NCBI GenBank assembly: GCA_044225505.1
Contig: JBGAIN010000020.1
Location: forward strand, 56,183 to 76,182
Length of the DNA stretch: 20,000 bases
Source of the DNA: Limisphaerales bacterium
GTDB lineage: Bacteria; Verrucomicrobiota; Verrucomicrobiia; Limisphaerales; SIBE01
Reading direction: 5' to 3'
The notes under the pieces: generated by a model
Database searches by the model: none
Told to the model about the DNA's origin: nothing
Seen by the model: only the letters and a program-made list of their open reading frames with translations
Program-made: the position numbers and the translations under genes
Shown here: one piece after another, positions 10,850-15,795 of the stretch
How positions within the stretch are numbered: position 1 is the stretch's first letter
How the letters are laid out: every line of letters starts with the position of its first letter

Positions 10850-11293
10850 GTGGAACCATCCGCGTCTGAACGCCTTCCGAGTCTCGCGTTGACTTCGATA
10901 ATTGAGGTGGCGGCTGGCTTGATCTTTCGCAATGGGCAGCTCCTGATCACCCAGCGTCGGCAGGGGGATCACCTCGAAGGGTTCTGGGAATTTCCCGGCG
11001 GGAAACGCGAAGCGGACGAGACCTTCGAAGCGTGTTTGCGCCGAGAGCTCCGCGAAGAATTAGGAACCGACGCTGAGCCGCACGAGTTGCTCGACAGCAT
11101 CACTCACGCTTACCCGGAGAAAACGGTCCACCTTCGGTTTTACCGTTGCACGTGGATTGCGGGAGAGCCGCAGCCTTTGGCGTGCGGCGCGCTAGCTTGG
11201 GTCCGTGCCGGGCAGCTCAACGACTACCGGTTCCCGGACGCGGACGCCAAGTTGCTCTGTTTGCTGCAAGCGAGGCCAGACCTGTGGGGCTGA
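10850..11293 (+). CDS. mutT: Nudix hydrolase, MutT/NudG-like (d)NTP pyrophosphohydrolase
   Basis: WEFPGGKREADETFEACLRRELREELG Nudix box, HAYPEKTVHLRFY and FPDAD. MutT and NudG cannot be told apart by eye. Confidence 0.85.
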   Translation: MEPSASERLPSLALTSIIEVAAGLIFRNGQLLITQRRQGDHLEGFWEFPGGKREADETFEACLRRELREELGTDAEPHELLDSITHAYPEKTVHLRFYRCTWIAGEPQPLACGALAWVRAGQLNDYRFPDADAKLLCLLQARPDLWG

Positions 11294-12489: not shown

Positions 12490-12708
12490 TTAAGCTGGGG
12501 GAACTGGCGTGTCTTTCGGCTCCGGGGCGGGAGACGCAGCGGAAGGATTGGAAGCAGCGGACCCTTTTCCGCCTAAGATCTTGAACATGACAGTACCGCA
12601 GGTTGGGCAACGACCCTTGATGGCTCGACGCCCGTTTTTCATGACCTCTTCCACAGCGTCAGCGATTTCTTTTTTCGATTTGCACTTAACGCAATAACCT
12701 TCAGGCAT
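12490..12708 (-). CDS. Small zinc-ribbon protein (DUF5679-like)
   Basis: YCVKCK...MKNGRRAIKGRCPTCGTVMFKI with two CxxC motifs, an AGGAG Shine-Dalgarno sequence upstream and a Pro/Ala/Ser tail. Confidence 0.85.
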   Translation of the reverse strand: MPEGYCVKCKSKKEIADAVEEVMKNGRRAIKGRCPTCGTVMFKILGGKGSAASNPSAASPAPEPKDTPVPPA

Positions 12709-12712
12709 AAAT

Positions 12713-12787
12713 CTCCTGCTATGCTGACCAGCCTGGCATCAGCCGAAGCAGGAGGGGAGTGTATGAGCGGGGCCTTTAGACCGTCAA
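12713..12787 (-). promoter_or_regulatory. Sigma70 promoter plus SD-sequestering 5' leader hairpin of the Zn-ribbon/ndk operon
   Basis: TTGACG (12787-12782), 18-nt spacer, TACACT (12763-12758). Leader: CTCCTGCT tcg GCTGAT gccaggctg GTCAGC at AGCAGGAG attt ATG. Confidence 0.65.
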
Positions 12788-13059
12788 CTGGGAAAACCTT
12801 CAGCACGGCCGAACGGGCCTCAAAAATAGCTGGCTTGGCCAGGGTTGAATGCGTTGTAAGTGTTTCTACATGAGACGCCTGGCAAAGATCTATCCCGTTC
12901 GGTTGGAAGCGAGTCAAGTTTATGTTCGGTTCAAGCACATCCATCCTCCCTGAGGGGCCTATTGCCGCTCTCGGCCAACCCTGTGCGTTTATTGGGAGAT
13001 TCCGGTTGAGTTGTCGGCCTAAGACCGATTAGAACTGGTCGGCAATACCCTGATTCCTA

Positions 13060-15166: not shown

Positions 15167-15748
15167 TTATCGGCTGAGGAACTTCGCCACGGCTTCCGTC
15201 CGCGTCCGGACCTGGAGTTTCTCGTAGATACGCCGGATGTAGGTGTGGACGGTCTCGTAGCTGATTCCGAGGTTCTCGGCGATTTCTTTGTAAAGAAAAC
15301 CTTTGGCCAGGTAATCCAAGACCTCCTGTTCCCGAGGTGACAAATTGTTTTCGATCGGCTGGGGCGCTGCGCCTGCCTTTTGGAAAGACTGCACCACCTT
15401 CCGGGCAATGTGGGTTGTCATGGGGGAACCGCCTCGGAGGACGTCTTTTATTGCGGCGAGCAGTTCTTGAGTGGAAGTGCGTTTCAGGAGGTAACCGGTG
15501 GCGCCGGCAGCCAGGGCGTTGAAGATGTTTTCCGTATCTTCGTAGACGGTTAACATGATGACTTGGATCTCCGGGGCAATCGCTGAGCGTCGCACGATTT
15601 GTTCGTTAATTTTCCTGGGGTCTTCGAGCGCTGCTTCCGCGCTGGGATATTGGCTGAGACAGGAGAATCCCTCGGCGCGGTTGATCAATCGCGCAAGCGT
15701 GTTCCGCACTTGGTCGCTGTCCTCAACAATGGATACCGTGGTGGCCAT
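15167..15748 (-). CDS. NarL/LuxR-family response regulator with an internally shortened receiver domain
   Basis: VSIVED...IMLTVYED...ALAAGATGYLLK and a LuxR HTH (LSPREQEVLDYLAKGFLYKEIAENLGISYETVHTYIRRIYEKLQVRTRTEAV). The usual DVVLMDIxLPG segment is absent. Confidence 0.88.
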   Translation of the reverse strand: MATTVSIVEDSDQVRNTLARLINRAEGFSCLSQYPSAEAALEDPRKINEQIVRRSAIAPEIQVIMLTVYEDTENIFNALAAGATGYLLKRTSTQELLAAIKDVLRGGSPMTTHIARKVVQSFQKAGAAPQPIENNLSPREQEVLDYLAKGFLYKEIAENLGISYETVHTYIRRIYEKLQVRTRTEAVAKFLSR

Positions 15749-15795
15749 ACACAAAGTCCGATCAAACTTGCTCGACGCGCTGCTCTCGATCCGGC

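Follow-up and report, generated by a model that had tools for sequence, protein, structure and literature searches.

The DNA analyzed here, 20,000 nt in length (this whole stretch is referred to as the window, and its genome as G000), carries on its minus strand a small gene of the DUF5679 family followed by an NDK gene, and the bases in front of them raise the question of what the short leader of this transcript does. A preliminary description had read these bases as a possible CTP/GTP-sensitive start-site switch resembling that of pyrC, placed on the operon as a nucleotide-pool sensor, and had named an RNA thermometer and a protein-binding hairpin as alternatives. In pyrC and pyrD of E. coli and Salmonella, transcripts that begin with CTP 6–7 nt past the −10 box carry extra C residues, and these mask the ribosome-binding site (PMC6524683, in excerpt). 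We compared the window's leader with those of its genus, which comprises three genomes (G000, G001 and G002), of its order within the Verrucomicrobia and of a sister class. The features of the locus are collected in Table 1.

Table 1. Features of the DUF5679–ndk locus in the window
Feature	Coordinates	Strand	Evidence
T-tract, UP-element-like, just 5' of the −35 box	12788..12796	−	position-wise T conservation, 96 leaders
−35 hexamer TTGACG	12782..12787	−	read from sequence; leader conservation; promoter scan match
−10 hexamer TACACT (family consensus TAAGCT)	12758..12763	−	read from sequence; leader conservation
Predicted start region C6 C7 T8 G9	12749..12752	−	placed by distance from the −10 box
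5' leader hairpin, divergent copy of the order-wide family, loop consensus lost	12715..12752	−	folding, covariation
SD-like AGGAG, overlaps stem base	12713..12717	−	read from sequence
DUF5679 gene, 72 aa: basic 48-aa four-cysteine zinc ribbon and variable Pro/Ala tail	12490..12708	−	PF18930
Tandem NDK gene, 388 aa	11307..12473	−	PF00334

The promoter was confirmed letter for letter, with TTGACG, an 18-nt spacer, TACACT and then C1 C2 C3 C4 T5 C6 C7 T8 G9, in which C6 is position 12752, C7 is 12751 and G9 is 12749; the DUF5679 start codon is the ATG at 12708. Both genes had been identified correctly (DUF5679, PF18930, E 2e-15; NDK, PF00334, E 1e-34), and the gap between them is 16 nt, as had been claimed. 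We retrieved 110 related loci by NDK, duplicates included, and DUF5679 stands directly upstream of ndk in 105 of them, which bears out the operon layout and gives 98 distinct leaders. The scored set, again of 98, includes two further family members that are ndk-less and omits two leaders for which no promoter was called. Among these leaders the −35 box is TTGACG in 88, the spacer is 18 nt in 86, the −10 box is TAAGCT in 54, and the distance from the −10 box to the ATG is 44–56 nt in 95. Moreover, T precedes the −35 box at −8, −7 and −6 in 83, 91 and 89 of 96 leaders, respectively. Because it is conserved across the 98 leaders, the promoter is real and more than a chance match. The comparison shows these bases to be a housekeeping-sigma promoter followed by a predicted 5' leader of about 43 nt belonging to the DUF5679 gene. 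Assembled RNA contigs from three of four studies cover DUF5679 and end at 12736, 12729 and 12702, with none upstream, a lack of coverage that carries no weight; contigs cannot resolve a start, and these ends are compatible, weakly, with the predicted one. A 101-aa ORF spanning the promoter (12639–12944) was rejected, being open in 3 of 96 loci and having no significant homologue.

Within the window's own leader, the pairing noticed earlier is present on the minus strand. CTCCTGCT (12754–12747) is the exact reverse complement of the SD-containing AGCAGGAG (12720–12713), and an inner stem joins GCTGAT (12743–12738) to GTCAGC (12728–12723) with one G-U pair. Folding gave six outer pairs from a start at C6 and five from C7, as had been proposed, while from G9 the outer stem is lost to another fold. 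Two of the eight complementary bases, C4 and T5, lie upstream of every start that had been suggested, and the window's fold is no more stable than its shuffles (z −1.5 to +0.8). In favour of the switch, CCT at positions 6–8 is the best of all 64 triplets for pairing with the SD region.

A leader hairpin is found across the order. Without selection, z was below −2 in 65 of the 98 leaders and below −1 in 78 (60 shuffles each). For covariation we used 68 of the 98, picked by eye; the 30 excluded were near-duplicates or had no clean hairpin, and include most of the window's family. In the 68-leader alignment 84% of the cells are paired, a level reached by none of 500 shuffles and to be compared with 31–49% in slid registers, and double changes occur at 12 of the 12 pairs, although such covariation counts are inflated by related sequences. 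G-U pairs outnumber A-C in the stems (82 vs 25), which indicates that the hairpin is formed as RNA on the minus (gene) strand. The stem starts 7–12 positions after the −10 box in 85 of the 98 leaders. A pentaloop is present in 65 of the 98, with GA at loop positions 3–4 in 49, and the commonest loop 9-mer is found in 26. The usual loop is GC-NNGAN-GC; among the 68, conservation reaches 90% or more at its closing G-C, at the loop G and at the closing G. In a quick NDK tree (95 rows; G001 was excluded since its ndk is frameshifted) this consensus loop occurs on several deep branches, and the window's genus is nested within them. As judged from this comparison, most of the leader is shown to be one hairpin kept as RNA throughout the order, typically with 12 pairs and a C-G-closed five-base loop NNGAN, and ending 5–12 nt before a U-rich, usually SD-less start.

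We then searched with a covariance model of the family (R1). It gave one match each in 21 of 101 genomes, and 19 of the 21 matches lie directly before DUF5679, 14 of these outside the training set; the model scores few of the left-out leaders, and two weak off-target matches (E 0.011) were seen in the 101 genomes. It does not score the window's own copy, though the window was in the training set, and the window is therefore taken to hold a degenerate copy of the hairpin. A search of G000 for a regulon gave no second model site, where the model also misses the first. Rfam returned nothing at its gathering threshold, with two matches at E > 4 for the window region and none for 14 related loci. 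Two further ideas about the loop were rejected: a CsrA-type site, GGA being absent from most loops, and an upstream ORF beginning at the loop ATG, which falls in all three frames (13/11/7). In one leader (L017:1179–1228) the consensus loop is present in reverse-complemented form, apparently through a micro-inversion within the palindrome.

Loci that lack an ndk beside DUF5679 bear on which gene the hairpin belongs to. In 15 loci ndk is not downstream; there the promoter is mostly kept and a hairpin is predicted, with the full consensus loop in only 2 of the 15, L168 and L140, neither of which has an ndk within 1.5 kb. The hairpin thus appears to follow DUF5679 rather than ndk. In addition, the start of ndk lacks an SD in 95 of 98 loci, at a variable gap after DUF5679 (median 9 nt); since ndk has its own SD-less start, blocking the translation of DUF5679 need not touch it. 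On both counts the suggestion of an operon-level sensor acting for NDK is not supported, and when read as a sensor of nucleotides serving NDK the finding carries little weight.

DUF5679 is a domain with almost no literature, and the papers found concern viral elements. Of 401 genomes of the order, 329 have it, in almost all cases as a single gene (a tally including G616, flagged as unpublished), and it occurs in 6 of 301 genomes drawn phylum-wide, the window's included. Its 48-aa core is 85–100% identical among the 150 best-scoring matches listed. The protein is basic (pI 9.5), and its structure model is an all-beta zinc ribbon (pLDDT 90.7). The closest folds are Cren7 (Z 4.1, rmsd 2.8, 46 aligned), NrdR (Z 4.0) and L44e (Z 3.5), which are weak, tied and below the level that shows function. 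Cren7 resembles it as a small basic all-beta zinc ribbon (PMC5906684, in excerpt), but the two share 9% identity, and no Cren7 Pfam match occurs among the 25 families listed for 83 DUF5679 homologues. Foldseek gave no significant match (E 1.2), and the search by sequence for a solved homologue gave none, only a non-significant match to aS34 (E 0.34), for which no convincing bacterial homologue is reported in the excerpt of PMC11698992; NCBIfam and Atlas added nothing on the protein. Type-2 zinc ribbons and Cren7 have been linked to nucleic-acid binding (PMC5906684, in excerpt), and going by the model DUF5679 likely binds nucleic acid. In four long proteins (P0121, P0139, P0151 and P0157) DUF5679-like stretches recur, as many as 35 times in 3179 aa.

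Across the family the loop sequence is kept while the stem drifts, which points to recognition by a protein. Our leading reading, which we hold tentatively and somewhat short of an even chance, is that the leader hairpin is read by a protein, most simply DUF5679 itself, in feedback on its own translation. The likeliest reader would be DUF5679, as a small basic zinc ribbon of nucleic-acid-binding type behind a strong promoter; in excess it would bind the hairpin beside its start codon and so damp its own translation, and ndk would be a frequent passenger on the transcript with a start of its own. In the window's genus the loop has decayed and the stem has moved up to the first transcribed base and across an AGGAG, which would account for the likeness to pyrC. 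The operator may be dead or changed in the window's genome, because the loop is lacking there and the family model misses the copy. Of the possibilities named at the outset, a protein-binding hairpin suits the family better than the switch does. Autogenous translational operators occur in the leaders of small nucleic-acid-binding proteins, for example those of ribosomal proteins. The DUF5679 leader resembles them in that its hairpin is short, covaries, has a conserved loop and stands next to a start codon, and in that the protein encoded is small, basic and, within the clade, near-universal and single-copy; unlike them, it is not in Rfam, and DUF5679 is no known ribosomal protein. Autoregulation through a hairpin is also described for rne (PMC3997798, in excerpt).

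The commonest loop 9-mer recurs letter for letter in the 16S rRNA of three of four relatives (L135, L137 and L138, at about position 1353), and the fourth, L136, has a variant there that is also seen in two leaders. Shuffled 16S sequences contain the 9-mer in 0.8% of cases, in a comparison made post hoc. In the rRNA the 9-mer is presumably the strand of an internal loop. We treat the match, which was looked for because of the E. coli sequence, as a lead only. A fuller version of the protein-read operator can be drawn from it: DUF5679 would be an unrecognised ribosome-associated (or Cren7-like nucleoid) protein of the order, controlling its synthesis through a hairpin whose commonest loop copies nine bases of the host's 16S rRNA, and in the window's genus this operator would have been replaced by a newly evolved CTP/GTP start-site switch on an operon with the only NDK of the cell. 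This whole chain is a long shot.

A simpler reading, possible though rather unlikely in our judgement, is that the hairpin at the 5' end serves simply to stabilise an abundant mRNA and to leave the start region accessible, its loop being kept only as a favourable fold or by descent. The usual stem start would coincide with the 5' end or fall within a few bases of it, and leaders that have lost the loop, the window's among them, still have a hairpin. The stem-loops of ompA, papA and aprE likewise lie at or near the first transcribed base; to our knowledge they need no specific loop sequence, unlike the DUF5679 leader, in which the loop is conserved. Stabilisation by 5' stem-loops is known from these three genes, and RppH needs unpaired 5' bases (PMC3997798, in excerpt), but many of the leaders have 4–5 unpaired 5' bases, which by the same account is enough for RppH. 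This reading also leaves unexplained why the loop sequence is kept across deep branches while the stem changes freely.

The switch itself could still operate within the genus: starts at C6 or C7, at high CTP, would cover the SD, and starts at G9, at high GTP, would free it, tuning DUF5679 and, by polarity, ndk. We consider this improbable. The parts of it that stood up are the promoter, the operon layout and the existence of a real leader hairpin; conservation of the switch layout stops at the genus. The preliminary description had proposed to look for conserved C6/C7–G9 spacing with anti-SD pairing in relatives, and this combination fails outside the genus and in G002. A purine occupies position 7 or 8 in 112 of 126 distinct leaders, which therefore have no need of a pyrC-like choice of start. 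C7-Y8-G9 is found in 6 of the 126, an SD-like motif in 35 and both in three, one of which has A at 6 and no predicted shift. By comparison, C7-T8-G9 with C at 6/7, no purine at 7–8 and a sigma70-type promoter is present in 3 of 3 genus genomes, the window's included. Two of these three pair C7-T8-G9 into the SD, with different sequences, and the stems of G000 and G001 are related by a compensatory T-A to G-C change, which favours the switch; G002 keeps C7-T8-G9 and has no SD, which does not. The wider family of the window has G9 in 12 of 13 members and AGGA in 9 of 13, but also a purine at position 7 in 6 of 13, and G9 is in any case a plain stem base as well. A metagenome scan for further genus members found two loci, neither with a genus-type leader and one identical to L014.

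To weigh the predicted effect we computed the cost of opening the SD with an SD-only measure calibrated on E. coli pyrC. A wider ribosome-footprint measure fails on the pyrC control because the pyrC SD lies outside the measured span, and the SD-only measure was preferred; since it reproduces pyrC and not pyrD, and the wider one failed, the energies are indicative only. In E. coli pyrC the cost falls from 5.8 kcal/mol (C7) to 1.9 (G9). The window's values are 2.6 (C6) and 1.4 (C7) against 0.3 kcal/mol (G9), and those of G001 are 4.8 (C6) and 4.0 (C7) against 0.1 kcal/mol (G9). The release on moving to G9 is thus 1.1 kcal/mol from C7 and 2.3 from C6 in the window, against 3.9 and 5.5 in pyrC, and it is 3.9 from C7 in G001, which matches E. 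coli pyrC and speaks for the switch. With an opening cost of 1.4 kcal/mol the window's SD is nearly open even from C7, so the blocking that had been expected there comes to about a quarter of that in E. coli pyrC. A predicted shift of at least 1 kcal/mol occurs in only 3 of 26 SD-bearing leaders, one of which starts with A7. Also in favour of the switch, all five pyrC-like traits occur together in the window alone among 38 strong-promoter leaders of G000, in a count for which the window had been preselected for the traits and which used the ribosome-footprint measure that fails on pyrC.

SD use in the host bears on the switch as well. SD motifs precede 10–11% of 1424 crudely called starts in G000, compared with 6–9% in the background further upstream (a count without a positive control), so that SD use there appears near background, as in the SD-scarce Verrucomicrobia (PMC10798248 and PMC10783764, both in excerpt). 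The anti-SD is nevertheless kept in the 16S tails of 4 of 4 relatives, a point in favour of the switch; no 16S gene was found in the G000 or G002 assemblies. The genes served are not those of pyrimidine synthesis, DUF5679 being first and the tandem NDK second, the leader persists without ndk, and ndk has its own SD-less start. Repression by CTP of a non-specific NDK would moreover have no clear pathway logic. The DUF5679 leader is like E. coli and Salmonella pyrC and pyrD (PMC6524683, in excerpt) in its pyrimidines at 6–8, its G9 and its 5' bases complementary to the SD, and the computed SD release in G001 equals that of pyrC; it is unlike them in its non-pyrimidine gene, the weak effect in the window, the restriction to two genomes, the SD-scarce host and the lack of an Rfam match. 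The pyrC-type layout, being confined to two genomes of a single genus, is probably incidental.

For the sister class in the same phylum, the class of G263, we examined 17 DUF5679 loci; we take this class to be Kiritimatiellia. Kiritimatiellia use SD at 63% (PMC10783764, in excerpt). The tandem ndk is downstream of DUF5679 in 9 of the 17 loci, and the DUF5679 leaders have structures different from the order's hairpin; the switch was found in none of the 10 leaders with a called promoter and an SD. In 7 of the 17 loci (L132, L181, L183, L186, L187, L189 and L190) a motif (A/T)ATATA, often in a hairpin loop, lies 61–81 nt before DUF5679 (2000 shuffles: mean 1.4, maximum 5). The motif presumably resembles the NrdR box, and it may represent a site of that kind or else a second operator specific to this lineage.

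That the hairpin and the U-run before the start codon form a weak intrinsic terminator or attenuator is quite improbable. The strong G-C stems are followed by U-rich bases (mean T fraction 0.59 over the last 7 nt), and one clade has its U-run immediately next to an extended stem. But several non-U bases usually separate stem and U-run, U-rich bases precede the ndk starts too, and neither an alternative fold nor a leader peptide was found, the loop ATG being spread over the three frames as given above; the window has only three U, and the terminator scan did not call its hairpin. An RNA thermometer, in which the stem that overlaps the SD in the window would melt off it at higher temperature, is barely worth entertaining, as the opening energy drops smoothly with temperature and equally for all starts, most relatives lack an SD and have stems very rich in G-C, and Rfam gave no thermometer match.

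No description of the leader hairpin was found in Rfam or in the literature searched, though the supplements of large RNA-motif surveys might list it, and no literature joining ndk with start-site selection was found. The hairpins thus apparently form an undescribed cis-acting RNA family in a poorly studied order, while conserved leader hairpins as such are already a known kind. For DUF5679 they offer a concrete handle, namely a near-universal and highly conserved gene, present in single copy, that has a strong promoter and is preceded by a candidate operator. The case also shows how an existing 5' hairpin can give rise to a pyrC-like pattern, and the series of a weak (G000), a strong (G001) and an absent (G002) effect is a ready comparison for the de novo evolution of such switches.

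The NDK of the window consists of two NDK-like halves and is encoded by the only NDK gene found in the 95%-complete assembly. The HxSD motif is present in the C-terminal copy in 97 of 97 proteins and in the N-terminal copy in 10 of 97. This tandem NDK is linked to DUF5679 in two classes and is the sole NDK found in many genomes. Two loci on contigs titled Phycisphaerae (L069 and L095) encode this tandem NDK immediately behind a TTGAC-type promoter, with no DUF5679 in between. The ndk of G001 (G001:C39; L112/L115) contains frameshifts and a stop, possibly from sequencing error. Elsewhere in the window, a NUDIX (MutT-like) gene at 10850–11293 on the plus strand converges on the 3' end of ndk with 13 nt between them, and in a response-regulator ORF at 15167–15754 on the minus strand the receiver domain, judged by eye, seems partly missing near 'ALEDPRKINEQIVRRS', perhaps by an in-frame deletion or an assembly slip.
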